IMG/VR virus record: IMGVR_UViG_3300032053_000004
Location: 138,144-202,143 of that record
Length of the DNA: 64,000 nt
From: a virus
Taxonomy: Duplodnaviria > Caudoviricetes
Strand: one strand, 5' to 3'
This document shows positions 8,643-28,083 of the stretch, in pieces (the first letter of the stretch is position 1; each line of letters opens with the position of its first letter). The position numbers and the translations under genes are program-made. The notes beneath the pieces were generated by a model that did no database searches, had not been told where the DNA came from, and was given only the letters and a program-made list of their open reading frames with translations.

Positions 8643-8730
8643 CGTTGAATTGTTTAGTTGAATTACTCCTGCTAAAACGAAGTTTGTCTATAAGCTGCGT
8701 GATTAAATTTTTTTTTGATTTTAATTTAAT

Positions 8731-9156
8731 ATGAAGCCTTCTCAAGTCGCCATAGCTCTACGTCGTATCGCTGCCGGAATTCAGGCTTCAAAAAATCCTG
8801 ACAAGAATCTAGTTGCTCGAGATCTAAAGAAAATTATATCTAAAATAGCAGGCATGAATAATATGGATGGGATTAAGTGTTTAAAAGTTAATATTAGAGA
8901 ACATAAACCGTTAACACGAGACACCCCTTACCCAGTTATCGATGGAGTTTTTCAATTTAGTACTCCAAACGGGCATATTATAGATTTTGATGGAAGATTT
9001 GATCCTAATGACGTTCGATTTGTTCTTCTTAAAGATGGGGAAGATGTTTCAGATCAAATTGAGCCAGATGCATATAATATGGGTCCTGTTGATGAAAATT
9101 TAGAGGGTTTCGATCTTGAAGAAATTCTTGAGCATTGTATGAATTCTCAAGTTTAG
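8731..9156 (+). CDS. MKPSQ-leader family protein 1 (conserved 40-aa leader plus acidic variable domain)
   Basis: Leader MKPSQVAIALRRIAAGIQASKNPDKNLVARDLKKIISKIA is shared with four other ORFs. Confidence 0.85.
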   Translation: MKPSQVAIALRRIAAGIQASKNPDKNLVARDLKKIISKIAGMNNMDGIKCLKVNIREHKPLTRDTPYPVIDGVFQFSTPNGHIIDFDGRFDPNDVRFVLLKDGEDVSDQIEPDAYNMGPVDENLEGFDLEEILEHCMNSQV

Positions 9157-9195
9157 ATTTTTTTTTTGATTTTTTTTTTTGATTTTTAATTTAAT

Positions 9196-9660
9196 ATGAA
9201 GCCTTCTCAAGTCGCCATAGCTCTACGTCGTATCGCTGTCGGAATTCAGGCTTCAAAGAAGCCTGACCGAAGGCTTGTAGTTCGAGATCTAAAGAAGATC
9301 ATAGCTAAAGTGGCTCTTCTTGGCCTTCTCAAACCTTATTTGTTATTTACATCCCACGCTGGAAGTGCAATATGGGAAATTTATGGACCAATTAATATCA
9401 ACGATTTTAAGAACGCTGTGAAAAATTATAATTCAGATGATTCATCTACAGAACGTGGTTCAGACGGAACAGCATATTTTTTTGAAAATTCTGAGGATTT
9501 AATGAATAGATGGTCTGAAACTGGATTTGATTCAGTCGAATCCATTGATGACGCGTTAAATTCAGTTGAAAATCACGGTGACATGAGTTCTGACGAATCT
9601 ATGAGAATGTTAACTGGTGAAATTGATGGTCTTACTGGAGTCGATTCTGAAGGCAACTAG
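9196..9660 (+). CDS. MKPSQ-leader family protein 2
   Basis: Same leader; first 43 nt identical to the 8731 copy; unrelated C-terminal domain. Confidence 0.85.
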   Translation: MKPSQVAIALRRIAVGIQASKKPDRRLVVRDLKKIIAKVALLGLLKPYLLFTSHAGSAIWEIYGPININDFKNAVKNYNSDDSSTERGSDGTAYFFENSEDLMNRWSETGFDSVESIDDALNSVENHGDMSSDESMRMLTGEIDGLTGVDSEGN

Positions 9661-9689
9661 TATATAGATAAAGTTTTTTTTAAATTGGC

Positions 9690-9707
9690 GTGAAGCCTTC
9701 TCAAGTT
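9690..9707 (+). pseudogene. Relic 5' end of an MKPSQ-leader cassette
   Basis: GTGAAGCCTTCTCAAGTT (VKPSQV) after a T-run, as in intact copies; similarity is lost after codon 6. Confidence 0.5.
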
Positions 9708-9790
9708 TCTATGACTTGGGAAGTTAATTGCTCCCCCCGAAGTTTTATGGAGGACCCCGTAAAGTTACATATGATGAGATTGAAAGAAAG

Positions 9791-9796
9791 TATAGT
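9791..9796 (+). promoter_or_regulatory. Sigma70-like -10 box 5 nt before the start codon (leaderless transcript candidate)
   Basis: TATAGT-cttta-ATG; no Shine-Dalgarno sequence. Confidence 0.45.
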
Positions 9797-9801
9797 CTTT
9801 A

Positions 9802-10311
9802 ATGGATAATCTAGATTCTGAAGCTTTAGCTGAACGTTATATAAATAGAATGTATATAGACCACCCGGCTGTTCGCTGGTGGGCACATCCTCGAATTTTA
9901 GTTGGTGGATCGATTAACAATTCTGATGATTTTGAAAATATGCAAAATAAATTCGGGGTTACATCAGTAATCTCCGTAGAATCCGAGCATTCGGATTCAG
10001 GCAAAGTTCCTGAAGCAATTTTATGTCATCTTCCAACACCAGATGATGGATCCGCACCGTCTGTCCAGCATTGGAAGACACTGATAGATTTCGCCCAAGT
10101 CGCACTGAAAGACCCTTCTTCTAAGGTCTATGTCCATTGCCAGATGGGCGGTAGCCGTTCTCCGGCTGCAGCTTATGCTATCTTGCGGACTGTATTTAAT
10201 TTCAGCCCGGAAGATGCCCTATCCAGTATCCAGCGTTTTAAAACTGAATATGGTGGGCATTGGTACCACCAAAATTATATTGGATCTGTTGAGACAGCTC
10301 TCACTTCTTGA
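9802..10311 (+). CDS. Dual-specificity protein phosphatase (PTP/DSP fold)
   Basis: Catalytic loop VYVHCQMGGSRS (HCxxGxxRS); general-acid loop LPTPDDGS; ILVGG and VISV upstream. Confidence 0.9.
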   Translation: MDNLDSEALAERYINRMYIDHPAVRWWAHPRILVGGSINNSDDFENMQNKFGVTSVISVESEHSDSGKVPEAILCHLPTPDDGSAPSVQHWKTLIDFAQVALKDPSSKVYVHCQMGGSRSPAAAYAILRTVFNFSPEDALSSIQRFKTEYGGHWYHQNYIGSVETALTS

Positions 10312-10897
10312 TAGTATATAACCCCTTTTTCGGACTACTGAACAATCTCTTATGATTGTAGAAAGCAGAAGAAAGCATCTTCTTCCAGTCCTTAGCGGAA
10401 GATTTAAACCCTGAAGCTTTAAGCTCCTTTATAATTTCTTCTGCATTCATAGGATTTACAGATTTGCTTAAAATCTTATGGATAAGGGTTTGAATCGGGG
10501 TTGAATTGATAATTCGACCGTTCGATAATTTTTTAAATGAATGCGCCGCGGCCCATGCCTGCTCGTAGATGGGGTTATCTGAAGATTTCTCTTCTTGCGG
10601 CGCAGTTTTCTTAGCAATTTTCTTAGTAATTTTCTTAGTAATTTTCTTAGCAGTTTTCTTAGCAGTTTTCGGTTTTTTCGATTCTTCTTGCTTTGTTCCG
10701 GACAAAGCAAGAATTTCTTCGGTTATTTTATTGAGTTCGGACTCCATAGACTGTCGCTTGGAAGATAGACTATGGAGTTTTAAATGTTTAGAATTTATTA
10801 TCTCCTGGAGTTGTTGGATTGACATACTATCGATCTTGGATTTCTTCATTTCGAGTTTCTCCTGTTTGGGTTTCTCTGCTTTTGGCAGATTTACCAT
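10301..10897 (-). CDS. Putative nucleoid-associated DNA-binding protein (coiled coil, Lys-rich linker, winged HTH)
   Basis: N-terminal heptad helix; AKKTAKKITKKITKKIAKKTA repeats; C-terminal wHTH-like PMNAEEIIKELKASGFKS...KGLYTIKK. Confidence 0.65.
   Translation of the reverse strand: MVNLPKAEKPKQEKLEMKKSKIDSMSIQQLQEIINSKHLKLHSLSSKRQSMESELNKITEEILALSGTKQEESKKPKTAKKTAKKITKKITKKIAKKTAPQEEKSSDNPIYEQAWAAAHSFKKLSNGRIINSTPIQTLIHKILSKSVNPMNAEEIIKELKASGFKSSAKDWKKMLSSAFYNHKRLFSSPKKGLYTIKK
10603..10668. repeat. 12-nt tandem repeat, about 5 copies (TTCTTAGYARTT), encoding Lys-rich tetrapeptides on the - strand
   Basis: ttcttagcaatt/ttcttagtaatt/ttcttagcagtt units read directly from the sequence. Confidence 0.85.
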
Positions 10898-10941
10898 TTT
10901 ACAATTGAAATAATAGGATTTTTTTTTTCTTTTAAGTTAAT

Positions 10942-11343
10942 ATGAAGCCTTCACAAGTTGCCATAGCCCTTCGTCGTATTGCTTCCGGAATTCAGGCTTC
11001 AAAGAATCCTGATAAGAGGCTCGTCGCGAGGGATTTAAAGAAAATTATTGCTGAAATAGCAGGAATGGATATGGATGAACTTCCATTCAAAGGTGACTCG
11101 GAATTTGAAGAAGTGATGATTGGAATCATGTTTGATCAAGAAATTGGACTTGATAACGCTATTAATAAAGCAAAAGAACTAATTGAAAGAGATGGGTTTA
11201 AAACTGGGAAATTTATGATCGACCATCATCGCCCTGGGACAATTGTTGGAAATATGGAAATTTCTCCCGGGTTTTATGATAAATTCTCTGATGGTTGGGA
11301 GTCAGAGGATGAAGGTGTAATTGTTACCCTGGAAGCTCCTTGA
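10942..11343 (+). CDS. MKPSQ-leader family protein 3
   Basis: Same leader; acidic, unrelated C-terminus. Confidence 0.85.
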   Translation: MKPSQVAIALRRIASGIQASKNPDKRLVARDLKKIIAEIAGMDMDELPFKGDSEFEEVMIGIMFDQEIGLDNAINKAKELIERDGFKTGKFMIDHHRPGTIVGNMEISPGFYDKFSDGWESEDEGVIVTLEAP

Positions 11344-11394
11344 TCATAATATTGTGTTTGGTTAAATCGTTCATTAAAAATAAACATTGAACCT

Positions 11395-11826
11395 ATGGAT
11401 ATGAATAATATTGCCATTCGGGTAGCTTCCATGAATCTGGAAGCGGCGAAGAAGAAAAAGAAAAAACCGAAGAAGACCGGTTTAAAATCTAAAAAACCAG
11501 CTCGGGTCTCCCAACCTAGAATTTTGGAGTCTATTACGGCTCCTGAGACTGAATATTCGTGCCGGGCTGAAATATCTTTCAGTGTTGATTTTGAAGGAAA
11601 TGTATCTAAAGACAAACTTACTCGGGCGCTTAAACGGGAAATAATGGCGTCCCTCGGTTCAGCCGTAACTTCCGTCTCAAGAAGTTTTCAGATTTCAGCT
11701 TCAAATGTTCTAGTGAAGCCGATTGCTTTTGAAATTGCTACTAGTGACCAATTCATGGTCGAAGATATGGACGAGCTTGGTGAAGCCGGGTCAGAAATTG
11801 ATGACCCTAATTACGAAGATACATAA
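11395..11826 (+). CDS. Hypothetical protein with N-terminal IAIRVAS motif and a basic tract
   Basis: 143-aa ORF; IA-x-R-[IV]-A motif shared with 6799, 29925 and 26416. Confidence 0.65.
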   Translation: MDMNNIAIRVASMNLEAAKKKKKKPKKTGLKSKKPARVSQPRILESITAPETEYSCRAEISFSVDFEGNVSKDKLTRALKREIMASLGSAVTSVSRSFQISASNVLVKPIAFEIATSDQFMVEDMDELGEAGSEIDDPNYEDT

Positions 11827-11850
11827 ATTTTTTTTTAGATCATAACTAAT

Positions 11851-12288
11851 ATGAAGCCTTCACAAGTTGCTATAGCTCTTCGTCGTATTGCATCAGCTAT
11901 TCAGGCTTCAAAAAATCCTGATAAGAATCTAGTTGCGAGGGATTTAAAGAAAATTATATCTAAAATAGCAGAAGGGCCTATTGATTGGGCTGACATCGAA
12001 AATACACTATTTAACGCTCTTAATAATTCAGATTCCGTTGAATCTGAAGTCTTTGATGAAATAAGTGGATTAGATAATCTTAATCAACAGTATGGTCTTG
12101 TATTTTCACAAGTAATAGATCTTGATCAAAATATTGGTATTCAGGTTTCTTACGAAGGAGATTTTGATTTGGTTTGGTTCGGACCGATTTCTTCTTTTGA
12201 TAAAACGGCAAAAGCAAAAGCAGCATCAGACGCTATTTTATCTGCTCAGAATTTCAGCTCGTTCCTCGAAGAAGATTTACTTCAATAA
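11851..12288 (+). CDS. MKPSQ-leader family protein 4
   Basis: Same leader; strongly acidic payload. Confidence 0.85.
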   Translation: MKPSQVAIALRRIASAIQASKNPDKNLVARDLKKIISKIAEGPIDWADIENTLFNALNNSDSVESEVFDEISGLDNLNQQYGLVFSQVIDLDQNIGIQVSYEGDFDLVWFGPISSFDKTAKAKAASDAILSAQNFSSFLEEDLLQ

Positions 12289-12300
12289 ATTCGCTTGGTA

Positions 12301-12630
12301 ATGTTTGGGATGGACCAAGCTCCCAACGTTGTCAAAATTCAGCTCAAGCCTGAGACTCTAGACCAAATCGCCCGTTTGGATAGCGCAATTGCGCAACATT
12401 CGGTTGAACACAGCCAGATAGTTCTTCGAGCCCAGACACTGCTCATGGAGCTCGATGGTTTTTATGAGGCTAAAAAATCTACGGTTTTAGCGGCAACCAA
12501 AGAATCTGGACTCAATCCAGACATGGTTGTCCAAATGAAAATAAATCAGGATGGGTCAGCCCTTGTTCAGGTAAAGGCTCCTCAACATTCGGTTGAAGAA
12601 CCGACTCCTCCGGCCCCAACCATACAATAA
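12301..12630 (+). CDS. Hypothetical helical protein
   Basis: ORF of about 109 aa filling the gap between genes; ATG at 12301. Confidence 0.55.
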   Translation: MFGMDQAPNVVKIQLKPETLDQIARLDSAIAQHSVEHSQIVLRAQTLLMELDGFYEAKKSTVLAATKESGLNPDMVVQMKINQDGSALVQVKAPQHSVEEPTPPAPTIQ

Positions 12631-12656
12631 GTTGTTGATTCCCATCCTGTTATAGG

Positions 12657-13982
12657 ATGCCCGCACCTCCTGATCGATACCCTGAAATTCTAGAACAAAT
12701 TTATCCGGCTATCCCGTTAGCGCCGTTGAACGTTCTAGCCTCTACGGGTTTCGAAAAAGGAGTCGTAGATATCCGCTGGACGAATCCGGCAGAAATTGCG
12801 GCTAATACCACATTTAATATTTTAGGGGTCAATGTTTATCGGAGTTTTGACTCGGCCTTTGGTCCATATTTTCGTTTAACCCAAGTTCCTATCGGGTCTA
12901 CATTTTATAGAGATAGATCTGACATACGGATGGCGGTTCAAGAAAACGTATCCGATTCTTTCATTTTAAGAGGACCAACTTCAGACCCTAGTTCTCGATA
13001 TGTATTTAGGACTATTCAACGTCCTATCCATTTAGACCAATTTCCGGGATTGTCTGACTGGACGAATTTAAATGTCCAGGTCACTATTAATGGAAAAAAG
13101 TCATTTGTTGAAAAAATTGATTCAACCTTAGGGGAGGTTTCTTTAGGTATCTATCCATCTTTTGATGTTGGTAATAAAGAACAAATTCAACCAGTTTTAC
13201 CTACGAATCCAAGCGATGTTGTTCTCGCTACCTACAAATACGTAAAATCATTTGTTCCAACAGATTTAGCCCAAAGGATATTCTATCGTTTAACCACTGT
13301 CGCATATGATCCTGAATGCAATCAACTCATAGAAACTCCTCTTGATCGAGCTTCGCAAACGAACAATCAAGAAGTTGAGAAGCTCGATTGGATTTGGAAA
13401 GAAGCAGTGCGTCGTAATCGTTGGATTCTCCAAATGGGAGGAGAACGAGTCAAATTATTTATTAGAAGAGTCGTAGGACCGAATTGTGGTTGTAACTCTT
13501 CCATATACAAACAACCTTCTTCTGATTGTGTTGTTTGTTATGGAACGGGGATTATTGGTGGATATTCTGGTCCTTATGATATAGTAATAGCTCCGGACGA
13601 CGCGGACAAATCCATAAAACAAGCAAATCGTGGAAGAAATTTAGATCACTCGTACGAGACTTGGACTAGTCCGAGTCCTCTTCTTTCTCAAAGGGATTTT
13701 GTAGTTAAACTGAATGGCGATCGTTATGGGATAGGTCCTGTTCGAATGCCGACAAATCGGGGTATGCAACTCCAACAATTTTTCACTATTTCTCACTTAG
13801 ATGAACAAGATATTAGATATAAAATTCCAGTTCTTGATACGACAGTTCTTGTTTTTCCACAAACTCGTTATACTATTCCTGGAAAAGGTAACGCAACTCC
13901 GATGGTCACGGAGTCTCAACGGATCCCGGATGAACATGAGATTCGAGGGGCCACCGTTACATTCCAAAATACTCAGTACTAG
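12657..13982 (+). CDS. Neck/head-closure-like virion protein with a Zn-finger insertion
   Basis: CGC...CVVCYGTGIIGGY motif followed by a beta-rich closure-type region (ETWTSPSPLLSQRDFVV...RYGI). Confidence 0.55.
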   Translation: MPAPPDRYPEILEQIYPAIPLAPLNVLASTGFEKGVVDIRWTNPAEIAANTTFNILGVNVYRSFDSAFGPYFRLTQVPIGSTFYRDRSDIRMAVQENVSDSFILRGPTSDPSSRYVFRTIQRPIHLDQFPGLSDWTNLNVQVTINGKKSFVEKIDSTLGEVSLGIYPSFDVGNKEQIQPVLPTNPSDVVLATYKYVKSFVPTDLAQRIFYRLTTVAYDPECNQLIETPLDRASQTNNQEVEKLDWIWKEAVRRNRWILQMGGERVKLFIRRVVGPNCGCNSSIYKQPSSDCVVCYGTGIIGGYSGPYDIVIAPDDADKSIKQANRGRNLDHSYETWTSPSPLLSQRDFVVKLNGDRYGIGPVRMPTNRGMQLQQFFTISHLDEQDIRYKIPVLDTTVLVFPQTRYTIPGKGNATPMVTESQRIPDEHEIRGATVTFQNTQY

Positions 13983-14035
13983 TTCCTTTATTTAAATCGG
14001 AAAATTATCCTATCTCATGAGCGTCGTTAAGGGCG

Positions 14036-14698
14036 ATGAGTATGCAAAAGAAAAAAAACGTAAATTATGCGACTCAATTAAATACGGTAGTCGATAGAAT
14101 ACTAGATAATATAGTAGATAATATAGCTAAAGATGGACTTGTTCTTTTAAAGAAAGTATTAGATTCATCCGGTTTTGCGGATTCTGAGTATCTTAAAGAT
14201 TATGAAGTATATGCTCATGTAACCGGACACTCCATAACTTTTGAAATTCTTCTCGACACATCAGCTATAGACGAAATTGAACAAGAAAAATCAGAAGAAG
14301 CAAAAGAAAAAGCTGAAAAAATAAAAGAAAAAAAGATTGAAAGAGCCTCTAGGTCTTACGGGATTGTAAAAACCGGGCCAGCCAGAGTTCTTGGAGTTCG
14401 AGACGCTCGTTCTCCAGCTATAGACGCGCGGACGGATAATAGAAAGAATTCGAAAGACCGATTAGTTGAACATGAGATAGCTTTAGTAGCTCCTCGTGGT
14501 CTTTCCGTAAAAAGGAATGGTAAAGTTTCTCTTAAATTAAAAAGAACAGCGAGAGAAACTGATACTGAATTCATTTATCCTAAACGAGACCCTGAAGGAA
14601 TAATAAAAGAGTTTCTTGATAAGTTAAGTGATATAACTAAGAAGAATTTTCTTCCAGAACTTGAAAAAGCGATATCTAAATATGCTTCTCAAAATTAA
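14036..14698 (+). CDS. Hypothetical protein (neck/tail-completion region)
   Basis: 220-aa ORF in operon context. Confidence 0.55.
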   Translation: MSMQKKKNVNYATQLNTVVDRILDNIVDNIAKDGLVLLKKVLDSSGFADSEYLKDYEVYAHVTGHSITFEILLDTSAIDEIEQEKSEEAKEKAEKIKEKKIERASRSYGIVKTGPARVLGVRDARSPAIDARTDNRKNSKDRLVEHEIALVAPRGLSVKRNGKVSLKLKRTARETDTEFIYPKRDPEGIIKEFLDKLSDITKKNFLPELEKAISKYASQN

Positions 14699-15242
14699 AT
14701 TGATAAATCAGATATCTTCAGATATAATTATTGAGGATATAGGAGTTAAATTGAGTGGGAAAGGTGATTCCCGTATAGTAGATTTTGACATTGCCTCAAA
14801 GTCTAAAGATTTGGTTCGTATGGCTGGAATAGTTAGACAAGAGCAAATTCCTGTGCTTAAAATTTGGCCATTCACATCCACCCCGGATATTCCGGTTCCA
14901 AAATCTATAATTCCCCCTCAAAAGCCGAACCCCGTCAAAATCATAATTCACGATGATCAATCAAAAGCCATTTCAGAACTTTCTTCAAAAATGGATATGA
15001 TTCTTCAAATGCTTTCGGAAAAATCTAATACTCCGACAACTATCGTAAATCAAATAATGCCTTCATCTGGACAGATTGCTCAGTCTCCGATGAAAAAATC
15101 GGATGATCCGGTATTCATACCTAGTAAGATAGTCCCGGATGGAGTTGAATCAAATATGAATATTAAATCTAATGAAATTCAGAAAGAAGATATTGAAGAT
15201 GTGAGTAGAAAACTTGGTTCTTTGTTAAGATCTAAGAAGTAA
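14682..15242 (+). CDS. Hypothetical protein, Pro-rich middle, directly upstream of the actin-like gene
   Basis: ATG at 14682 overlaps the end of the previous gene; preferred over TTG at 14661. Confidence 0.55.
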   Translation: MLLKIKLINQISSDIIIEDIGVKLSGKGDSRIVDFDIASKSKDLVRMAGIVRQEQIPVLKIWPFTSTPDIPVPKSIIPPQKPNPVKIIIHDDQSKAISELSSKMDMILQMLSEKSNTPTTIVNQIMPSSGQIAQSPMKKSDDPVFIPSKIVPDGVESNMNIKSNEIQKEDIEDVSRKLGSLLRSKK

Positions 15243-15254
15243 TGTTATACTGGA

Positions 15255-16283
15255 ATGGCTAGGAAAGAAACACATATGGAAAAGTCTGAAATCGTTCCAG
15301 GTTGCTCTATAGACGTTGGCACCATGAACTTGGTGGCCGCTCGTCGATCTGGGAAAAAAGTATCCACTAATCGAATTCGAAATGCTTTTATAGATTTAGA
15401 ACCTGATAAGAAGAGAATGCTTAAGTTGAGTAACACGAGTTTCGTAGAACTCGGGGATCGTCTTTTAGTCTTGGGCGACGAAGCTTTAGAAACCGCTAAT
15501 TTGTTTAATCGTGAAGCTCGCCGCCCAATGTCTGGAGGATTGATGGCTTCAGGAGAACTTGATTCTCAACAAATTATCAGTTTGATGATGAAAAAAATAT
15601 TAGGAGATCCTACAGTCCCTAATGAAAAATGTGCTTATTCAGTCCCTGCCCCGGCTGTTGATGTTAATGATTCTGATATCACATATCATAAAGCAGTTTT
15701 AAAGAAAATTTTGACTGAGCTTGGATACGATGCCATAGATGTTAATGAAGCTTTAGCCATCATATTTTCAGAGTGTGGTAATGAAAATTTTTCTGGCCTT
15801 GGGATAAGCTATGGTTCTGGTATGACTAATGTTTGTCTTGCCTATAACGCCATGAGTGCCATGGAGTTCTCTTTAGGGAGAGGCGGGGATTACATAGATC
15901 GTGGAGCCGCTAAAGCTGTTGGCACTACAGCTGCTCGAATTTGTTCTATTAAAGAAGGTAAGTCTAAATCTGTAGACATAACTAAACCTGAAACTCGGGA
16001 AGAAGAAGCTATAGCTTTGTTCGTTCAAACTCTCATAGATTATACTATAGATAATATCATTACTCATTTTCATAATGTAAAAAGTGAGCTTTTCATACCG
16101 AAACCAGTTCCTATAATAGTTTCCGGCGGGACTTCATTGGCTAATGGATTTTTGGAGAAATTTAAGGAACGATTTAAACTTCATTCAGGAAAGTTCCCGT
16201 TTCAAGTTTCAGATATAAGGGCTGCTGCTGACCCTATGACAGCTGTGTCTACCGGACTGTTATTATTGAGTCAGATGGATTGA
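15255..16283 (+). CDS. Actin-fold ATPase, volactin-like family
   Basis: Phosphate-1 IDVGTMN, phosphate-2 GISYGSGMTNVCLAY, RGGDYID, adenosine motif IIVSGGTS, C-terminal connect-2 DPMTAVSTG. Confidence 0.85.
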   Translation: MARKETHMEKSEIVPGCSIDVGTMNLVAARRSGKKVSTNRIRNAFIDLEPDKKRMLKLSNTSFVELGDRLLVLGDEALETANLFNREARRPMSGGLMASGELDSQQIISLMMKKILGDPTVPNEKCAYSVPAPAVDVNDSDITYHKAVLKKILTELGYDAIDVNEALAIIFSECGNENFSGLGISYGSGMTNVCLAYNAMSAMEFSLGRGGDYIDRGAAKAVGTTAARICSIKEGKSKSVDITKPETREEEAIALFVQTLIDYTIDNIITHFHNVKSELFIPKPVPIIVSGGTSLANGFLEKFKERFKLHSGKFPFQVSDIRAAADPMTAVSTGLLLLSQMD

Positions 16284-16313
16284 TTGATACCTGTTTAATG
16301 CGGAATACTTAAT

Positions 16314-16595
16314 ATGGATAATTATTTTCGTGGCGTTCCTGTTGGAAAGATAATCACGACTGTTGAAGACGTTATATCTCATAACGCTTCTGTTGGTATA
16401 CTTTCTCCCTCAGGTCAACCGACTAATCAAGTCGATCCTCCTTCGCTCCCTTTAGCCCCAGAGCCTCCCCAAAATACTGGGGGTTCTCAGGAAGAAATTC
16501 CTGCTGTGGAAGCTTCTGAACCTGTGGAAGCTTCTGAACCTGTGGAAGCTTCTGAATCTGATGCATCAGATTCTCCAAAGCGTCGTCGTCGATAA
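16314..16595 (+). CDS. Small disordered acidic/Pro-rich protein
   Basis: 93-aa ORF with VEASEP repeats and a C-terminal KRRRR. Confidence 0.55.
   Translation: MDNYFRGVPVGKIITTVEDVISHNASVGILSPSGQPTNQVDPPSLPLAPEPPQNTGGSQEEIPAVEASEPVEASEPVEASESDASDSPKRRRR
16504..16556. repeat. 18-nt tandem repeat x3 (CCTGTGGAAGCTTCTGAA)
   Basis: Read directly; encodes VEASEP. Confidence 0.9.
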
Positions 16596-16607
16596 CGAAG
16601 GCGTGAT

Positions 16608-17819
16608 GTGCAATATTCTTGGCTCAGTTCACCTATTAAGAAGAAGCTCATACATGAGCTTCGTTCAATATTAGAGAGTCACCCCAGATACCGGGGTGAC
16701 GCTCAAAACGTTCAAAATAAATTCGCCTTTACCGAAAGGCCTCAACGTGGGATTATACTAAATAATACTTCTGCAGATCGAGTTAGACTATCTGCAGATA
16801 ACTATATCGGTTGTCTTTCTTCATTTTGTATGCTTGCTTATTACACGGATTTTCCTGGGACTACTATTGAGTGGGTTCGGGAAAATTCGGATTTGCTTTA
16901 TAAGATTTCCCCAAAAAGGAACATTTTTCCTAGTCATCCTGGCGTATATAATATATCAATAACTGAAGTTCCGGATGAAGCTCATAATATTCCTGGGAAA
17001 TTTGTTATAACTCCTCTTTTGACCATTACTAATGAACCACTGATTGTTTTTTCTAGTTCAGGTGATTTTGATGCCCAGCTTTCTCATGAAAATATCTATC
17101 CAGGGTCCGTTAGGCTTTGGTTAGATCAAAGAATAGCTCTTCTAGAAGGTGTAGACTTTATTGTTGAAAATACGACCGGATATGTAACGTTTTTAAAACC
17201 AACTCCTACTGGGTATTCAGTTTCTGCTGATTATCGATTCATAATCCCGGATCAAGGTCCACTTGATTTTAAATCAGAAGAATTTGATGCTACTTCAATT
17301 CCTGGAGTCGTTATAGCATTTGGTGATCGGGCTCAAAAAGGAGACCGGTTATCTATTGTTGTGACTGACGAAAGAGTTGATACTGCCTCAATTTATGGCG
17401 GGAAATTTGAAATCAATACTGAACTTATAGTTTTTACTCGGGACGCTGAAGACCGAGAAAAAATGAGCGATTATGTGATAATTAAAATGCTTGAGCGCCA
17501 AAATGATCTCGGATTTTTAGGCATAGAACTTCTCGATATTTCCCCAGGGGGTGAGAGCGAAGAAGTTTACAATGAAGCCACTGACGATTATTTTTATGAT
17601 AGCACAATCTCGCTTTCTCTTCGGGTAGACTGGGAGTCATACATTCCTCTCCCGATCGAAGTCGAAGCTATCCGTATGACATCTAAATCAGCAGAACAAG
17701 AAACTGGTTATTTGGATGGAACATTCCCATACGATTTATTGAAAATCGGTTCTCCTGTGGAAGTTGCAGGGGTGAATACTATTATCGGTCGGAATATCGG
17801 ATATGAGCGAACTCGTTAG
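16608..17819 (+). CDS. Tail terminator/tail-completion-like protein
   Basis: Position just before the sheath; C-terminal segment resembling a terminator fold (EINTELIVFTRDAEDREKMSDYV...YFYDSTISLSLRVDW). Confidence 0.5.
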   Translation: MQYSWLSSPIKKKLIHELRSILESHPRYRGDAQNVQNKFAFTERPQRGIILNNTSADRVRLSADNYIGCLSSFCMLAYYTDFPGTTIEWVRENSDLLYKISPKRNIFPSHPGVYNISITEVPDEAHNIPGKFVITPLLTITNEPLIVFSSSGDFDAQLSHENIYPGSVRLWLDQRIALLEGVDFIVENTTGYVTFLKPTPTGYSVSADYRFIIPDQGPLDFKSEEFDATSIPGVVIAFGDRAQKGDRLSIVVTDERVDTASIYGGKFEINTELIVFTRDAEDREKMSDYVIIKMLERQNDLGFLGIELLDISPGGESEEVYNEATDDYFYDSTISLSLRVDWESYIPLPIEVEAIRMTSKSAEQETGYLDGTFPYDLLKIGSPVEVAGVNTIIGRNIGYERTR

Positions 17820-17859
17820 AAATTTTGTGACATAGTTCGATTCCATTAGATCTCTTTAG

Positions 17860-17865
17860 TATAGT
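17860..17865 (+). promoter_or_regulatory. -10 box 5 nt before GTG (leaderless candidate)
   Basis: TATAGT-ttatc-GTG. Confidence 0.45.
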
Positions 17866-17870
17866 TTATC

Positions 17871-18284
17871 GTGCCTGTATTTGAATACACATGCAAAAAT
17901 TGCGATGTTGGTTTCGAAGAAATTTTAGTTAATTCAGAAGATATTAAAAATTTTTTCGAAAAGCATAAATGTCCTGTTTGCAATAAATGGGCGAAAAGAC
18001 AACCAGTTTCCGCAGTGAATTTTACTTTTAAGTCCTCTACACCTGGAAACTCAGGGTCTCATGATTTGGATTATCCGACCTTAGATAAGGCTGTCGGAAG
18101 ATCTTCTGAGAAAAAATGGGGAAAAATTAATGATAGAAAAGCTGCCCGAGACAAAGTAAGAAAAGAATCTGGTACCAATTCTATAACTCAAATCGGTAAT
18201 AAAATGATGCCGACTTCTCCTGAAAAATTGGCAGTACGTCAAAAAGCTTTCGAAACTTTAAGAGAAGTTTCGAAAAAGTCTTAG
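17871..18284 (+). CDS. FmdB-family zinc-ribbon protein
   Basis: MPVFEYTCKNC...FEE...CPVC, the characteristic FmdB N-terminus. Confidence 0.8.
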   Translation: MPVFEYTCKNCDVGFEEILVNSEDIKNFFEKHKCPVCNKWAKRQPVSAVNFTFKSSTPGNSGSHDLDYPTLDKAVGRSSEKKWGKINDRKAARDKVRKESGTNSITQIGNKMMPTSPEKLAVRQKAFETLREVSKKS

Positions 18285-18329
18285 ATATTAATAAATCAGC
18301 CTAGTCTCATTGTTGAGGCTTCTATGATT

Positions 18330-18365
18330 TGAGTTTCTTGAGCCCTTCCGGTCTCAAGAAACTCA
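18330..18365 (+). terminator. Hairpin (13-bp arms, 10-nt loop) upstream of the sheath gene
   Basis: TGAGTTTCTTGAG / CTCAAGAAACTCA perfect inverted repeat; no clear T-tail. Confidence 0.5.
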
Positions 18366-18443
18366 TACATAGATTTGTTTTGCGGATTTTTTAGTACATA
18401 GACCAAGACGTAGACCTTCTAGATTAGGAAGGGAATCAGGAAA

Positions 18444-21400
18444 ATGGGAATCGGACCTTTCACCACATACGCACCTCCTGGAGTTTACACGAGCACCTTA
18501 GTTGAACCGGCCGTCGGTCAACTTTTAGGTGGTCTTCGTATACCTGTACTAATTGGCACAGGCCAAGAATCTATGTCTCAGGACAATTATGAAATTGTCC
18601 GTGGGTCTAGCAGCGTATCCGATACTCCGATCTTCGGAGAAGACGTCGCTGCCCGCTGGGTTGTTAGTGGTACTAACACCAACCCGGTCCTTGGTAACCA
18701 AACCGGGGATCTTTTCAAGTTCCGAGTTCGGAACTATCCGATCGTAGATGGGACTGGCATCGGGCGGACTGCCTTTGACGCTAACCGCGTTGCAGTTTCT
18801 GTCAATGGCCAACCTGTATCTGTTTCTGGTGTTGATGGCACTAACGGCATCGTCTCTCTTTTAATTGCTCCTGAGCCTACTGATATTGTTACAGTTAATT
18901 ATTATTTCCACCGTAAAGATACCAGAATCACCGATGACGTCTCGATTCAGGTGACGCTCGGATCTGCCGTTCTGATTGTTCCGAGAGTAGAGACATATGT
19001 CATAGTTACTGGTGTTAACGACACATTAATCGTTAATGTCAATGATTCGGCCAGTTCTTCGACGATCGTTTTCCCGGCGGCTACATATACCGCTGCTTCA
19101 GCGGCTAATGCTATTAATATAGCGGCCATTCCGGGTCTCACAGCCTCGGTCCATGTTGATAATCAGGCCTTGAATCACGTTCAGCTCGTTGCTCAAGGAA
19201 ACGTTCTGATTGGTTCAGGAAACGCCAACGGAACCTTCGGACTCAATCCGGGCGCATATACGAATAGAAATCGTAGTTTCCGAGTATTCAACGGTCCGAT
19301 CGTTGACGGGTCTGATGGTGGCATTACGACCACTGATCCTTCGAAGGTCGTGGTTATGGTTAATGGCACTCAGGTTCTCGCTTCGGCGGTGGACGGTGCC
19401 AATCGTTTAGTGACTCTTTCGTCTGCTCCTTTTAATGCAGCGATAGTTACTATTCAATACTACTTCAACACATACCAAGATACTTTCGATTATCTCCCGA
19501 ATTCAAATATCGTTTCGACCGGGAATGTCGGCATATCCCCTGGCCGTCGGGACTATCTGAACGGCCCCGATTTCATCGTCATAAACCAAGGCGATCAGTC
19601 CATAATTCAGTGGGGTACCGCCTTCCAGGTTCAGCCGGGAACGAGAACCGGAACCACGTTTTTCGATGGAACCCAAGTTCTTGGGTTACTTGTCGATGAT
19701 CGCATATTTGCGATAGAGTGTGCTCGATTTACTAATCCGACTACAAATTCGATCGAGACGAATGTTTGGACGCTTCCGCTCCAGCCTACGACCGGAAATG
19801 GGCGTGATACGCCTCTTTCAACTTCTGTATTCAATGCCATAACGAATGGCAGAATTGATCTTCCAACCGATCAGCCTGAACTGGTTACTGCTTATGTTGG
19901 AAAAACGGTCCGCGACGCTCTCGGGCGTCCTCCGGTCACCGTTCTTGCGGTTGATTCTGTGACCAATAATATAACTCTTAAAGATCCGGTTCCAGCGGAT
20001 TATAGAGTTTACGCAACATTCTGGTACAATCGTATTCAGGATGACACTTATACCCTGACGGTCATCAACGCTGGTTCTACTGGTGTTGGTACGTATAACG
20101 TCGCATCCCAAGCTCAGGGTCGTAATCTTCTGAGTATGAGATTCGGAACGAAGACGGCTCTTCCCCAATCGGTTAATTTCCCGAGTGGTTCAGAACTCAA
20201 TCCCGACGCGATTCAATTCGGTGGGAACCCGGTTTCTGAAACTGCGACTATTACTTTCACGTTGCAACCGGCGACTCACGCTTCGTTCACCAATGCGAAC
20301 GCGGAGCCGTACGATCTGTTTGCCCCAGGGTCGAACATTTTCGGGAGCGTCATTATTGACGGTGTTCCGATCAGCGTGAACATGTCTACGGCTTATCCGG
20401 CAACTCTCGCCGGTCAGCCGGTGTTTACTCCGGCAACTCTCGTTTTCGCGGCGACGGATCGTCTCGTTCTTGAAGTTGATGGTGTTTCGCTCAGCCCAAT
20501 CGATGTGAGCGCTCTCACTACGCTCTCGGCTGTTGCGAACTCGGTCAATGAACAGACTGTTATCGATCTCGCAAATGAGCTGAAGGCGGATTATAACTCT
20601 CATATTGCATCTACGACATATCATCTTGCAGCGGACGTCGCTAACCCGGTTACATCTCCTGATGCAACCTCACTTGCATCTGCTATTACTCTCATAAACG
20701 AGATGCAGGGTGACTACAACGCCCACAGAGTCAGCGTAGTTTTCCATCCAAACGCTGATATAATTAACGTATCGGCGGCGGCTGCAGCTGTCGATCTTCC
20801 GACTGCCGTCACACTCGCTAATGAACTGAAGACCGTATTTAACTCTCATCGCGTTCAGTTCAATACAACGAACGGAAACGTTCATGTTATTGATGATACA
20901 GTGAACGTTGTTTCCACTCCCAATTCTGGTGGAGTGGCAACAGTTATCACTTACGGAACCGAACAGGTTCTGGGTCTTCAGAGCACGAAGACTCCAGCAG
21001 CAGCACCTTCTGGATTGAATGATCTTTCTAGAACCAAGGTTTTGATCCCGGTTCTTTCGGGCCAAACTGACGCGGCGTCTAAAATCGGCCTCCAGTCCAA
21101 TTTGGAAGCCACTGGGTCTTACAACTCGATCAATCAGCCTGGATTCCAAGTTAGTGGAAACGCCGGACCATTCAATATTTCAGCATCGGTTACTGATCAG
21201 TTTAGGTTCAATATTGACGGAACTGATTTTACTTCAATTCTTCCGTCAGGATCAACGACTTCAACTACAGCAGTCGCCAACGCCATCAACGGAACCATAG
21301 CTTCAGCGGCCGACATAGCAACCGCTACAGCTACGCTCGTTACTCTTGCAAACGATATCAAGACTCAGTTTAACCTTCACATACCGTCTGTTGTTTTCCA

Positions 21401-23489
21401 CACGATTGCTGACGTCGTTAATACCATAACGTCTCCTGCTGCAACAGATCTCACGACGTCCATAACGCTTTTGAATGAAGCAAGACTGCGCCATAACGCT
21501 CATCGGGTTACTGGCGCTTTCCATCCAGCTCCGGATACGATAAACGCTGTTCTTGCGTCTAACGCAACGAATCTTGGAACAGCGATTACTCTCGCCAATG
21601 AGATTAAGGCTGAGTTTAATCGTCATCGGCTTCAGACTATCGGTGCTGTCAATGTTCACGTGGCTGATGACGCCGTAAACGTTGTTGCGGCAGTGGATGT
21701 GCTTTTTGCAAATCCTGCGGCCTTCGCAGGAACGTTGACCGGTCAGTATGCAGGTAAGCTCCTCCTCCGTTCCTTCGTCAATACTGTTCAGTCGGTTGTG
21801 ACTACTCAGGACGGAACGGCAAACTCAGTTCTTGGATTCTCGAGTTTTGTAGACGCTTTCCGTGACCAGCCTACGGCTTCGGATATCGCGTCGGCTTTGG
21901 ATGCGAATACGACATTCTTCGGAGCAGTACCGGTTCTCCCTGCGGTTCTTCGGACTAGTTCCAAGAGCATTGCATGGGCGATATCCGTAGCTGGTCTTGG
22001 AATGTTCCTCCAGATTAACTCGGATACTGCCGGTTCGACGTCAACGATTTCGTTTGCTTCTGTTGCAAACACGGCGTTCATTCCGGATACTGGGATCGGA
22101 ATTACTCCAGGAATCTCCGGAGATACTGGAGAAGCCACTCACTCGGGCTTCACGGTCACTTCGTCGGACTTGATTAACGGTTCTAGTGGAACTGGTTTCC
22201 CAGGCCAGACTTACACGGACGCCCGTACCGGTCTTCGATTCACCATTCTTCCTGCTACGAGCGGAGATTACGCGATCGGTGGGAGTTTCACTCTCCTCAT
22301 AGGATCGACTTTCACCTGCGACGCGTCAATTCCGACTCGCCAAGTTCCGGGTATTGAGACTACGGTTCTGAATACGAACGGTATGGCCGCTGGTACTACG
22401 GCGTTCTTGTCCACATACCTCAGGACTGGCAATGAGCCTAGGAACGGGGATGTTTACTACATCTCATATCAGTTCGCGAAGACTGATATTTCTACGGCTC
22501 TTTTCCGGGATCTCAAGAGGATTCAACAGAACTTCGGACCTCCGACGCCTGAATTCCCTCTGAGTTTGGCTGCTCGTTTGGCTCTTTTGAACGGTGCCGT
22601 TCTCGTTGGAATTCGTCAGGTTCTTCGGGCTCCGAATTCTTCCCAGGCTTCTCTGCAATCATATGTCGAAGCGATTGATGATCAGCAGAAACCGATTGCT
22701 GGGAACATTAAACCGGATGTGATTACTCCTCTCACGTCTGACCCCCAGGTATTTGCTTACCTGAACCAACACTGTGCTTTCATGGGTTCACCTCGTCAAG
22801 AAGGTGAGCGTATCGGAGTTGTTGGTGTTGCGGTTGGAACCAACCCTCTCGGGGTTCAAGCTATCGCTAAGGGCTTGGCTTCTGAGCTCATGATTGTGGT
22901 TTATCCTGATTCATACGTGGTTACAATCACGGATACGGCGTCAGGTGGAAACCTCGATCTTTTGATTGATGGGACTTATTGTGCTGCGGCCTTGGCCGGA
23001 ACGGCATGCGCTCCTTCAATCGACGTGGCTACTCCTTGGACTCGTAGACAAATCCAAGGGCTCAAGCGCGTGGGTCGTATTCTTGATCCAACGGATGCCA
23101 ACCAGACGGCTGTTGCTGGTGTTACCGTCATTGAGCAAGTTGAGTCGGGTCTTCGGGTTCGTCACGGTCTCACGACAAACCTGGCCTCAGTCATTACGCG
23201 TACTCCTTCTGTCATATTGACCATTCAATATGTTCAACAGACCATGCGTAAGGTCCTGGATCCGTTCATCGGCCAGAAGTTCAATGGTCAAATTCTCAAG
23301 TCAATTGAGAGTGCCATGGTCGGAGCTTTCTCGACTCTGATCGATAATCAGATCGTGGCCAAGGTTTCGGGCATATCGGCAACTGTCGATGATCAGGATC
23401 CGACGATTGCTCGAACGGAAGCCATTTACGTTCCTGTCTTCCCGCTAGAATATATAGTATCTATACTTTCTATTCGTATTAGATTATAA
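18444..23489 (+). CDS. Contractile tail sheath protein with large insertions (1681 aa)
   Basis: N-terminal YAPPGVYT; C-terminal sheath core (ERIGVVG...GVTVIEQ...RVRHGLTT...FIGQK...YVPVFPLEYI); purine-rich SD-like leader. Confidence 0.9.
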   Translation: MGIGPFTTYAPPGVYTSTLVEPAVGQLLGGLRIPVLIGTGQESMSQDNYEIVRGSSSVSDTPIFGEDVAARWVVSGTNTNPVLGNQTGDLFKFRVRNYPIVDGTGIGRTAFDANRVAVSVNGQPVSVSGVDGTNGIVSLLIAPEPTDIVTVNYYFHRKDTRITDDVSIQVTLGSAVLIVPRVETYVIVTGVNDTLIVNVNDSASSSTIVFPAATYTAASAANAINIAAIPGLTASVHVDNQALNHVQLVAQGNVLIGSGNANGTFGLNPGAYTNRNRSFRVFNGPIVDGSDGGITTTDPSKVVVMVNGTQVLASAVDGANRLVTLSSAPFNAAIVTIQYYFNTYQDTFDYLPNSNIVSTGNVGISPGRRDYLNGPDFIVINQGDQSIIQWGTAFQVQPGTRTGTTFFDGTQVLGLLVDDRIFAIECARFTNPTTNSIETNVWTLPLQPTTGNGRDTPLSTSVFNAITNGRIDLPTDQPELVTAYVGKTVRDALGRPPVTVLAVDSVTNNITLKDPVPADYRVYATFWYNRIQDDTYTLTVINAGSTGVGTYNVASQAQGRNLLSMRFGTKTALPQSVNFPSGSELNPDAIQFGGNPVSETATITFTLQPATHASFTNANAEPYDLFAPGSNIFGSVIIDGVPISVNMSTAYPATLAGQPVFTPATLVFAATDRLVLEVDGVSLSPIDVSALTTLSAVANSVNEQTVIDLANELKADYNSHIASTTYHLAADVANPVTSPDATSLASAITLINEMQGDYNAHRVSVVFHPNADIINVSAAAAAVDLPTAVTLANELKTVFNSHRVQFNTTNGNVHVIDDTVNVVSTPNSGGVATVITYGTEQVLGLQSTKTPAAAPSGLNDLSRTKVLIPVLSGQTDAASKIGLQSNLEATGSYNSINQPGFQVSGNAGPFNISASVTDQFRFNIDGTDFTSILPSGSTTSTTAVANAINGTIASAADIATATATLVTLANDIKTQFNLHIPSVVFHTIADVVNTITSPAATDLTTSITLLNEARLRHNAHRVTGAFHPAPDTINAVLASNATNLGTAITLANEIKAEFNRHRLQTIGAVNVHVADDAVNVVAAVDVLFANPAAFAGTLTGQYAGKLLLRSFVNTVQSVVTTQDGTANSVLGFSSFVDAFRDQPTASDIASALDANTTFFGAVPVLPAVLRTSSKSIAWAISVAGLGMFLQINSDTAGSTSTISFASVANTAFIPDTGIGITPGISGDTGEATHSGFTVTSSDLINGSSGTGFPGQTYTDARTGLRFTILPATSGDYAIGGSFTLLIGSTFTCDASIPTRQVPGIETTVLNTNGMAAGTTAFLSTYLRTGNEPRNGDVYYISYQFAKTDISTALFRDLKRIQQNFGPPTPEFPLSLAARLALLNGAVLVGIRQVLRAPNSSQASLQSYVEAIDDQQKPIAGNIKPDVITPLTSDPQVFAYLNQHCAFMGSPRQEGERIGVVGVAVGTNPLGVQAIAKGLASELMIVVYPDSYVVTITDTASGGNLDLLIDGTYCAAALAGTACAPSIDVATPWTRRQIQGLKRVGRILDPTDANQTAVAGVTVIEQVESGLRVRHGLTTNLASVITRTPSVILTIQYVQQTMRKVLDPFIGQKFNGQILKSIESAMVGAFSTLIDNQIVAKVSGISATVDDQDPTIARTEAIYVPVFPLEYIVSILSIRIRL

Positions 23490-23510
23490 ACGTTTGTTCA
23501 GTATTCAATA

Positions 23511-23547
23511 TTGGAAGACATCCGAATTTAATCCGGATGTCTTCCAA
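23511..23547 (+). terminator. Hairpin after the sheath gene (14-bp arms, 9-nt loop)
   Basis: TTGGAAGACATCCG / CGGATGTCTTCCAA perfect inverted repeat. Confidence 0.6.
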
Positions 23548-23621
23548 TTGAATTCTTATTAGTTCAATATTTCCCGCTTGGAGGACCATCTGTGTTTGGT
23601 TTTTAGTTAATTTATATTAAT

Positions 23622-23957
23622 ATGAAGCCTTCTCAGATCGCTCAAGCTTTAAATCATATTGCTTCTAAAATTCAGGCTTCAAAGAATCCTGATAAAAATC
23701 TAGTTGCGAGGGATTTAAAGAAAATTATTGCTCAAATTGACGAAGATGGCTCTATGACTGAAGACGACTTCATTAAAATGATTGAGAAACATTTGCCAGA
23801 ATTAAAAGAATGTATGGGAAAAGGGACTTCTGAAGAAAATCAAGAATTAGAAAAATATATGAAAAAACATTTAGGTTTGGATAATTGGGATGAAATAATA
23901 TCCAGAGCAGGAAAAGTTCTGAAAACCATGATTAACTGGGTTGAATCAAAGAAATAG
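23622..23957 (+). CDS. MKPSQ-leader family protein 5
   Basis: MKPSQIAQALNHIASKIQASKNPDKNLVARDLKKIIAQI leader plus a short helical payload. Confidence 0.85.
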   Translation: MKPSQIAQALNHIASKIQASKNPDKNLVARDLKKIIAQIDEDGSMTEDDFIKMIEKHLPELKECMGKGTSEENQELEKYMKKHLGLDNWDEIISRAGKVLKTMINWVESKK

Positions 23958-23958
23958 T

Positions 23959-24273
23959 TTAGTTTAAAAGTTCAGAGGAAATTTCTCTAAAAATTTTACT
24001 TACATTAGTTTGATTAAACTCAAGAGTTTTCTCAGAAAACATTGGAGATATCAGTGTTATGTTTGGTTCCTTTTCATCGAGCCAAACTCTAACCGAAATA
24101 GGGCTTTGAAAGTTTCCTATTTGAACTCCTCCTTTAGCTAAGTATATATTATCGCTTTGGATTTCTTTCAAATCTATAAAAGGAAAGCTTTCTGTCATTT
24201 CTTTAAGATCATCGGATAATTTCATCCGATAGAATTTTGAAATTATCTTGGACCATTTTAAATCATACTTCAT
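23959..24273 (-). CDS. Hypothetical protein
   Basis: 104-aa ORF filling an otherwise empty interval, divergent from the AAA+ gene. Confidence 0.55.
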   Translation of the reverse strand: MKYDLKWSKIISKFYRMKLSDDLKEMTESFPFIDLKEIQSDNIYLAKGGVQIGNFQSPISVRVWLDEKEPNITLISPMFSEKTLEFNQTNVSKIFREISSELLN

Positions 24274-24315
24274 ATACTCTTATACATGATAAGGTTTCAA
24301 ATTTTCGGCTCTTAG

Positions 24316-24324
24316 TGGTATGAT
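24316..24324 (+). promoter_or_regulatory. Extended -10 (TGnTATGAT) 6 nt before ATG (leaderless candidate)
   Basis: TGG-TATGAT-atttat-ATG. Confidence 0.5.
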
Positions 24325-24330
24325 ATTTAT

Positions 24331-25857: not shown

Positions 25858-25896
25858 ACCCTTCATAAAACTTAACTAGAGAGGACTGAAGAACCA

Positions 25897-26409
25897 ATGA
25901 ACCATAGCGAAGTTGTTAGCCGTCTGGTTGATCTTTCTGGCCGTCTTGCGGGCATGGACCCTCAGGATGATGCGGTTCAAAGGACCATTCAGGGCCTTCA
26001 GGCCAACGCGGAGCTTCTCCGAAGCAAGGCTGCGGACGCCCAACCGGGGGGTTTTCCTAAAGATTCTATGAAGAACGATATTGACTTTATAAGTCAACAG
26101 ATCTCCCGCCTCAAAGCAGCGGCTATGGTTCCCGCTTCCAATTGGCGTCGAGTTCTTTCAATCCTCGAAGGTCTAAATAACGCCGCTGTCGCAGCTTCTC
26201 GTCCCGCCAACGCTGCACTCCGTCCTAAGATTGCTAACATAGTTACGAAGGTTGCTGGCGTTTTTGCAGAAGTTGATACGGTTGAAGATCTCGACAAGCC
26301 TCTTGAGACTATTGAGAAGGCCGTCCACGGTCTCTATGGTGATCAATCAGCCAATAAGACATACTATTTTGATCGTCGCGGAAAAGGTCATCACTCAGAA
26401 CCTACGTGA
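25897..26409 (+). CDS. Helical Ala-rich protein, possibly an abundant internal head/scaffold-like protein
   Basis: GAGGA SD; GC-rich codons; internal segment ASRPANAALRPKIANIVTKVAG resembles the MKPSQ leader. Confidence 0.5.
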   Translation: MNHSEVVSRLVDLSGRLAGMDPQDDAVQRTIQGLQANAELLRSKAADAQPGGFPKDSMKNDIDFISQQISRLKAAAMVPASNWRRVLSILEGLNNAAVAASRPANAALRPKIANIVTKVAGVFAEVDTVEDLDKPLETIEKAVHGLYGDQSANKTYYFDRRGKGHHSEPT

Positions 26410-26415
26410 TGGTAT

Positions 26416-28073: not shown

Positions 28074-28083
28074 GGAAAAGAAC

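Follow-up and report, generated by a model that had tools for sequence, protein, structure and literature searches.

A conserved helical hairpin on small acidic proteins co-varies with a Cdc48-like ATPase block in the tail gene cluster of phage-G-like megaphages

The final 64 kb (hereafter the window) of the 202,143-bp IMG/VR virus record IMGVR_UViG_3300032053_000004 (CheckV completeness 47%) contains genes whose products share a leader of about 40 residues and diverge completely beyond it. As modelled, the leader is a small autonomous helix-loop-helix domain of 38–40 residues, not merely an N-terminal signal. It is well supported that this hairpin serves as a docking domain, is strongly constrained and carries interchangeable cargo, and likewise that its evolutionary companion is a block in the tail gene cluster encoding an AAA+ ATPase, a 170-residue helical protein (p170) and a hairpin-bearing protein, here called the hub. 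Probably the tag directs its varied cargo to one shared machine, which is not demonstrably the capsid. By analogy with the signal peptides of extracellular contractile injection systems (eCIS) and their ATPase Pvc15, we propose, with a probability of roughly 40%, that the hairpin hands small acidic effectors to the AAA+ machine for loading into the virion. Address tags on variable cargo are known in principle; for this tag family, the payload rule set out below and its coupling to a phage-encoded Cdc48-like ATPase, the family libraries and literature searched offer no description.

The first-pass annotation of this DNA had pointed to five open reading frames (ORFs) with a common leader followed by complete divergence. 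All five are real and lie on the plus strand (Table 1); of their first 36 positions, 27 have the same residue in all five, and no alignment is possible beyond. The set was nevertheless incomplete. A hidden Markov model (HMM) of the leader finds ten N-terminal copies in the 202-kb record (E 3e-27 to 2e-21, far beyond chance; next chance match at E 0.46), the other five being located upstream of the window at genome positions 37416, 39302, 68905, 85010 and 113390, as well as one C-terminal copy in the hub (E 1e-8); a relic of a leader start is also present. Over leader codons 1–39, the mean pairwise proportion of synonymous differences (pS) is 0.60 as compared with 0.22 for non-synonymous differences (pN), and pN is only 0.02–0.15 among the core copies. 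With synonymous sites almost saturated and the peptide conserved, the leader is under purifying selection at the peptide level. Its conservation is therefore due neither to recent duplication nor to an RNA or DNA signal. The payloads, in turn, show no significant similarity to one another (best BLASTP E 0.013 in a ten-sequence database). Since payloads have leader-bearing orthologues in other metagenomes, the genes are real. When the payload of leader protein 1 alone was used as query for leaderless homologues, in a search of limited reach, only leader-bearing proteins were recovered.

The leader genes are also marked by their upstream DNA. The T-rich spacer and TAATATG start noticed at first pass are present: elements equivalent to that of leader protein 1 (Table 1) precede the genes at 9196, 10942 and 11851, a weaker form precedes the gene at 23622, and about 25 nt upstream of the leader genes have been copied together with the cassette. 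The pattern of at least six T, 3–16 nt and TAATATG occurs in the 202-kb record only in front of leader genes (six of six distinct start sites; 26 overlapping matches on the plus strand and 0 on the minus strand). The element was considered as a promoter and this was rejected, as no sigma-70-like site exceeds chance and only leader genes carry the element.

When 1.84 billion metagenomic representatives were searched with a 21-row leader profile, 845 clusters were obtained at E≤1e-3 and 261 at E≤1e-10. The family statistics given here refer to 156 members, payload statistics to the 127 single-hairpin members, BLAST families to 126 payloads and Pfam results to 113 members. In the hairpin, a first helix of about 17 residues is followed by a K-N-P-D-type loop and a second helix of about 16 residues. 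The domain is basic (isoelectric point, pI, 10–12), and the conservation of the polar residues Q5, S20, K21, D24, D31 and K34 suggests a specific partner. The description of the hairpin as an N-terminal leader holds for most members (131 of 156 carry a single copy at residues 1–40) and fails for the remainder: 18 have two or more copies and seven a single C-terminal or internal one. The P-S-Q motif at the start of the hairpin recurs in internal copies and therefore looks like a helix cap, not like a feature of protein N-termini. No Pfam or PHROG family covers residues 1–40 of the five window proteins at E≤0.1, the best match of the leader profile among PDB sequences has E 0.4, and an ESM Atlas search with a leader protein returned nothing. 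The view that the leader family is undescribed is borne out by these searches, in which no DNA-binding family matched it either.

Tandem members of 88–103 residues consist of a hairpin, a Pro/Ala-rich linker and a second hairpin; in other members, two hairpins flank LRV repeats or another domain. AlphaFold2 predicts helices at residues 3–19, 25–40, 52–68 and 74–89 for one tandem member (predicted local distance difference test score, pLDDT, 74; predicted template-modelling score, pTM, 0.56). Proteins of this kind may hint that the hairpin is a homotypic pairing domain, whose copies would associate into four-helix bundles and form hetero-oligomers around the hub, as in WXG100/LXG proteins, with coupling to export or loading being optional. 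The mini-proteins and the hairpin-X-hairpin proteins would fit this, as would the greater likeness of hairpins within a genome than between genomes and the four helices of the tandem model, whose best Foldseek neighbours in the PDB by TM-score are generic four-helix bundles (TM 0.55–0.65). None of these neighbours is significant, however, all E values being above 0.1; AlphaFold packs any two amphipathic hairpins together, and likeness within a genome is equally expected from one shared co-evolving receptor. We consider homotypic pairing distinctly unlikely as the function of the domain. The LXG/WXG100 systems of type VII secretion, and polymorphic toxins generally, also combine a conserved N-terminal helical trafficking domain with a hypervariable C-terminal payload, small hairpin-only partner proteins and an ATPase-coupled machine, and the lowest-E Foldseek matches of the tandem model are EsxB hairpins, though not significant ones. 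Unlike them, the present proteins occur in a phage, have no WXG or LXG motif and carry payloads other than toxin domains, and the ATPase belongs to the AAA class, not to the FtsK/SpoIIIE type.

The payloads differ in sequence and obey a common rule of size and charge. Their median length is 100 residues (interquartile range 80–114), their median pI is 4.30 (97% below pI 6 and 87% below pI 5) and their median net charge is -10. By comparison, the median pI is 6.7 among the other 70–200-residue proteins of the phage, and only 23% of them are below pI 5. The 126 payloads fall into 97 BLAST-level families, and a Pfam domain, LRV, was detected within the payload of only two of the 113 members. A basic hairpin followed by a small, very acidic and hypervariable payload is thus a family-wide rule. 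The idea of a portable leader with exchangeable, mostly acidic small payloads, already put forward at first pass, is supported by the constraint on the leader together with the unrelated acidic payloads, and a hand count for leader protein 4 proved right (20 D+E and 3 K+R in the payload).

A possible partner emerges from comparison between genomes. Orthologous AAA+ loci (49–54% identity) were found in five more viral contigs and one JGI contig, and the order AAA+, p170, hub/leader is kept in five of six lineages (G000, G004, the near-identical pair G005/G007, G008 and L045). In G004, G005/G007, G008 and L045, the hairpin is fused to the homologue of the hub beta-domain protein or encoded directly beside it; in the window, the gene of leader protein 5 lies upstream of the AAA+ gene, with a 104-residue minus-strand gene in between. 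Four of four additional AAA-positive records contain leaders. The complete genomes of LR745208.1, phage G and Tunturi_5, conversely, have no leader, no p170 and no AAA+ orthologue, the sole AAA+ trace in these leader-negative relatives being a 21-bit, 80-residue AAA-domain match in LR745208.1. In that genome the gene order is 441-residue protein, actin, 403-residue protein, Zn-ribbon, sheath and, about 0.75 kb after the sheath, the tube homologue. Relative to it, the window has an insertion of 8.6 kb (23490–32113) between sheath and tube homologue, which contains a leader gene and the AAA+ block as well as three fibre-like genes and a nuclease-GNAT gene of low GC content (28%). The phage actin does not co-vary with the leader. 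Homing-endonuclease-like genes of HNH or GIY-YIG type recur between block genes, namely in L037 (G004), L038/L041 (G005/G007) and L045.

The ATPase belongs to the classical Cdc48/VCP-like clade. It has a single AAA domain at about residues 235–470 (Pfam 280–406; the PDB profile matches only 217–460), preceded by a novel N-domain of about 230 residues; the Walker A lysine is intact, and the alignment shows conservation of the arginine-finger motif NRPGRFD and of an aromatic, pore-loop-like W-C-T-G motif. It is a candidate handler of the hairpin-tagged proteins, for which p170 may be the adaptor. In the hub, a conserved beta-domain, whose profile has no significant match in the PDB, and an acidic PEESE repeat linker precede the hairpin. 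Co-folding of the ATPase N-domain (residues 1–245), p170 and a leader gave a score of 0.02 against a mark of 0.32, with chains that were themselves poorly folded (pLDDT 47–65). An ATPase of the classical unfoldase type could also recognise the hairpin much as a degron and so remove or recycle tagged proteins, with no loading into particles, and the small conserved protein adjacent to it might then act as an SspB- or ClpS-like adaptor. This we regard as very improbable. Pfam and NCBIfam scans revealed no protease partner in the block, it is unlikely that hundreds of payload families would be kept merely for degradation, and the location in the tail cluster would be left unexplained.

The head-packaging tag suggested by the first-pass annotation was modelled on phage T4, whose internal proteins (IPI–III and Alt) carry a common N-terminal address on otherwise unrelated small proteins delivered with the DNA, IPI* being anti-restriction; the T4 capsid targeting sequence was reportedly described by Mullaney and Black in 1996. 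Here, the leader would bind the scaffold core or the inner capsid and be cut by the prohead protease, and the payloads would be ejected as head-internal proteins. Most hairpins are indeed N-terminal and the payloads small, the outline of the hub is scaffold-like (acidic repeat tract, then a basic C-terminal helix-turn-helix), and one leader gene, at genome position 113390, is about 7 kb from the head module. In addition, the motif [IVL]A.[RK][IVLF]A ('IASRIA'), which helix 1 of the leader resembles, is enriched in this phage and lies near putative processing sites of protease-like and scaffold-like proteins. However, the T4 tag is a peptide of about ten residues at the extreme N-terminus which the prohead protease cuts at a defined site, whereas the present tag is a domain of 38–40 residues that also occurs in C-terminal, internal and tandem positions. 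After leader position 39, conservation drops to background and a short Gly/Ser/Ala/Pro/Asp-rich tract follows; no cleavage motif is shared at the junction, the candidates [ILVF]xE and [SAG]xE being found near it in 44 and 38 of 127 members, about one third in each case. There is no synteny with head genes. LR745208.1 has a head module with a 75% identical major capsid protein (MCP) and no leader, and the family co-varies with the tail-cluster block instead. Moreover, T4 internal proteins are basic and the present payloads acidic. Leader-like stretches seen by eye in 878-, 328- and 176-residue head-module proteins, and at the N-terminus of p170, were supported neither by HMM searches nor by hhalign (probability 0.7%). 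Given the missing junction motif, the position-independent tag, the missing link to head genes and the absence from a relative with a near-identical capsid, the capsid route is weaker than ATPase-assisted loading; a head-packaging tag is not supported by these data, and we judge it quite improbable.

The co-variation of the tag with an AAA+ block located between sheath and tube points to an ATPase-assisted route resembling that of eCIS, rather than for a T4-like scaffold core. According to three reports on Photorhabdus virulence cassettes (PVC), payloads enter the tube lumen by means of N-terminal signal peptides together with the AAA ATPase Pvc15 (PMC11495950; PMC9054023; PMC10097599). As described there for PVC and antifeeding prophage (Afp) particles, with Pvc15 and Afp15, a tag of a few tens of residues sits at the N-terminus of unrelated payloads, a classical AAA ATPase gene lies within a contractile-tail cluster with payload genes beside it, and, by extension, the tag would be transferable in principle. 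Here, an N-terminal tag likewise stands on sequence-unrelated payloads, and the AAA+ gene is situated between sheath and tube homologue, with a leader gene upstream and the hairpin-bearing hub downstream. We infer a sequence of physical recognition, loading, injection and payload activity. The hairpin is joined by a short flexible linker to a strongly acidic, hypervariable payload of some 80–115 residues; the ATPase module would recognise the tagged proteins, which would then be loaded into the virion, either into the lumen of the tail tube or into the head through the neck, two destinations that the data do not distinguish. The tagged proteins would subsequently enter the host together with the DNA, and the payloads might be fast-evolving, early-acting host-takeover or anti-defence proteins. 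Their narrow size range and uniform negative charge would fit passage through the narrow DNA-conducting channel of the tail. A stronger statement, that some phage-G-like megaphages possess an AAA+-driven loading system in which a 38-residue hairpin tag packs hundreds of interchangeable small acidic proteins into the tail or virion for injection ahead of or with the genome, appears somewhat doubtful.

Several observations weigh against ATPase-assisted loading. The tail tube of phages is normally filled by the tape-measure protein. No cultured relative carries the leader family, and the presence of tagged proteins in virions is a prediction. Of the ten leader genes, four are remote from structural genes and sit among small accessory genes at genome 37–85 kb; the proteins made of two hairpins only are not obviously cargo. 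The coupling itself has exceptions: in the complete, AAA-positive genome G006 no hairpin is detected on the hub, its three leader genes lying elsewhere, and no AAA+ gene is seen in the leader-positive fragments G001–G003, which are 17–45% complete. The Walker B motif of the ATPase reads I-E-D-M-D, with E-D in place of the usual D-E, and is invariant in five orthologues. Finally, the eCIS signal is a loosely conserved N-terminal peptide whereas the hairpin is highly conserved and predicted to fold, the present tag also occurs C-terminally and in tandem, and Pvc15 comprises three domains including tandem D1 and D2 as against one AAA domain and an unrelated N-domain here. Further differences from eCIS are that the present tail is part of a whole megaphage which also has head genes, that its payloads are all small, acidic and devoid of recognisable toxin domains, and that no likeness in sequence to eCIS components was found, no search aimed at it having been made.

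Alternatively, the tagged proteins may never be packaged and may act as intracellular effectors, the basic hairpin anchoring acidic payloads to one common host or phage target such as DNA, the nucleoid or a host complex, with the AAA+ block as a related and separate remodelling factor. The high pI of the hairpin would agree with this, acidic payloads are typical of small phage inhibitors, and the genes are dispersed, each with its own upstream element. Several are located among small accessory genes, contig L044 has three leader genes beside an HU-like gene, and tandem two-hairpin proteins would make sense as bivalent binders. This explanation nevertheless gives no reason why the family co-varies tightly with the AAA+/p170/hub block and keeps synteny with it, no DNA-binding family in Pfam or among PDB sequences matches the hairpin, and there is no obvious reason why anchored payloads should keep to a narrow size range. 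We consider it rather unlikely. Even if the proteins are unpackaged, the strict rule of a basic hairpin followed by a payload of about 100 residues and pI about 4, and the coupling to a Cdc48-like ATPase, require a physical explanation. If ATPase-assisted loading is correct, a replicating phage would contain eCIS-like protein delivery together with a ready-made portable packaging tag. A tag addressed to the virion would reveal injected phage effectors in large and unexplored number (at least 845 clusters, of which nearly all lack a known domain), would make it possible to load chosen proteins into phage particles by means of a short tag, and would tie phage tails to eCIS by ATPase-assisted cargo loading, beyond structure.

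Two other known systems resemble parts of the present one. The coat-binding domain of P22-type scaffolds is a basic helix-turn-helix of about 40 residues which ends an acidic protein, like the hub, and serves as docking module for a repeated structural partner. In contrast to such scaffolds, which are encoded beside the coat gene, the hub belongs to the tail cluster, the leader genes and the hub lie outside the head module, and a separate scaffold-like gene sits at the MCP gene; no PDB chain matches in sequence, and the hairpin heads at least ten proteins that are not scaffolds. Encapsulin cargo-loading peptides are likewise short portable tags that send diverse cargo into a shell of HK97 fold, but they are short and linear, usually C-terminal, and bind the shell directly, whereas the hairpin shows no link to the HK97-fold MCP.

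Table 1. Features of the window, in window coordinates
Feature	Position	Strand	Remarks
Upstream element (example)	8701..8730	+	T-run plus GATTTTAATTTAAT immediately before ATG
Leader protein 1, 141 aa	8731..9156	+	hairpin 8731-8850; payload 101 aa, pI 4.25; leader-bearing orthologues P0005, P0011
Leader protein 2, 154 aa	9196..9660	+	payload 114 aa, pI 4.05; orthologues P0014, P0008
Relic leader start	9690..9806	+	T-run, GTG, first six leader codons, then unrelated short frame ending at start of dual-specificity phosphatase gene
Leader protein 3, 133 aa	10942..11343	+	payload 93 aa, pI 4.20
Leader protein 4, 145 aa	11851..12288	+	payload 105 aa, pI 4.05; orthologue P0003 50% identical over 89% of length
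Actin homologue, Volactin family	15255-16283		in tail gene cluster; Pfam PF25216 E 9e-72
Tail sheath, 1681 aa	18444..23489	+	tblastn: Tunturi_5 tail sheath E 4e-47, also phage G gp178; left flank of accessory block
Leader protein 5, 111 aa	23622..23957	+	directly after tail sheath terminator hairpin, upstream of AAA+ block
104-aa protein	23959..24273	-	position beside AAA+ gene kept in contig G004; 34% identity, E 7e-10
AAA+ ATPase, classical clade (Cdc48/VCP-like)	24331..25857	+	Pfam AAA E 2.7e-23; NCBIfam FtsH/CDC48/PAN; PDB VCP-like E 5e-54
p170, 170-aa all-helical protein	25897..26409	+	always after AAA+ gene; C-terminal tail very conserved
Hub, 331 aa	26416..27411	+	beta-domain of ~57 residues (162-218), acidic PEESE repeat linker, C-terminal hairpin at 27286-27408
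486-aa protein	28084-29544		two ConA-like jelly-roll domains; model pLDDT 74.5
Putative tail tube gene	32114..32818	+	right flank of accessory block; homologue in LR745208.1 ~0.75 kb after sheath

Judged by its sequence, the source is a giant phage distantly related to Bacillus phage G, and the record would represent about half of a phage-G-like megaphage genome. The MCP is a 294-residue protein (genome 105824–106708) with 37% identity to the major head protein gp27 of phage G, 45% to the head protein of Tunturi_5 and 74.6% to that of LR745208.1, an uncultured phage of 485 kb. The head module occupies genome 96.8–107 kb, about 31 kb upstream of the window. A virion proteome is available for phage G (PMC12484599), which itself lacks the leader family in this analysis. 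The sheath can be aligned with that of LR745208.1 only over its N-terminal 660 and C-terminal 550 residues or so; the middle part is an insertion relative to LR745208.1 and has a higher GC content (0.46–0.50). The phage actin is 51–72% identical to homologues in LR745208.1, G006 and G008; phage G and Tunturi_5 lack it. A link of the leader to this actin, by way of a WH2-like helix 1 and an LKK motif, was discarded, the actin being present in the leader-negative LR745208.1 and Pfam giving no WH2 or SAP match.

Most genes neighbouring the leader genes had no match in scans with Pfam, PHROGs and NCBIfam. Within the four-gene leader cluster lie a dual-specificity phosphatase (9802–10311; Pfam DSPc E 9e-9) and, on the minus strand, a lysine-rich protein with a weak HARE-HTH match (10301–10897). 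The 486-residue jelly-roll protein was at one point taken for a capsid protein with the 331-residue hub as its scaffold; this was dropped in view of its fold and of the true MCP at genome 105824. An ESM Atlas search gave no name for it. With some 2000 metagenomic homologues of at least 50% identity, its conservation is unusual among lectin-like phage proteins.

Two sequence patterns recur among other proteins of the phage. The IASRIA motif is found 15 times as compared with 1.7 expected from shuffled sequences, seven of the occurrences being within the first 20 residues, and could be a processing or targeting motif. It stands at the N-termini of the window ORFs 6799, 11395 and 29925, at residue 154 of the hub, and in ORFs at genome positions 33907, 34627, 35302, 71225, 86758, 101021, 116795 and others. 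A second tag family is formed by a C-terminal ending, [VILMF][VILM][DENG][SAGC], which 21 of the 233 called proteins carry, in most cases behind an acidic helix (genome 2.5–51 kb and 109–110 kb); nearly all of its bearers are small proteins in the accessory region.

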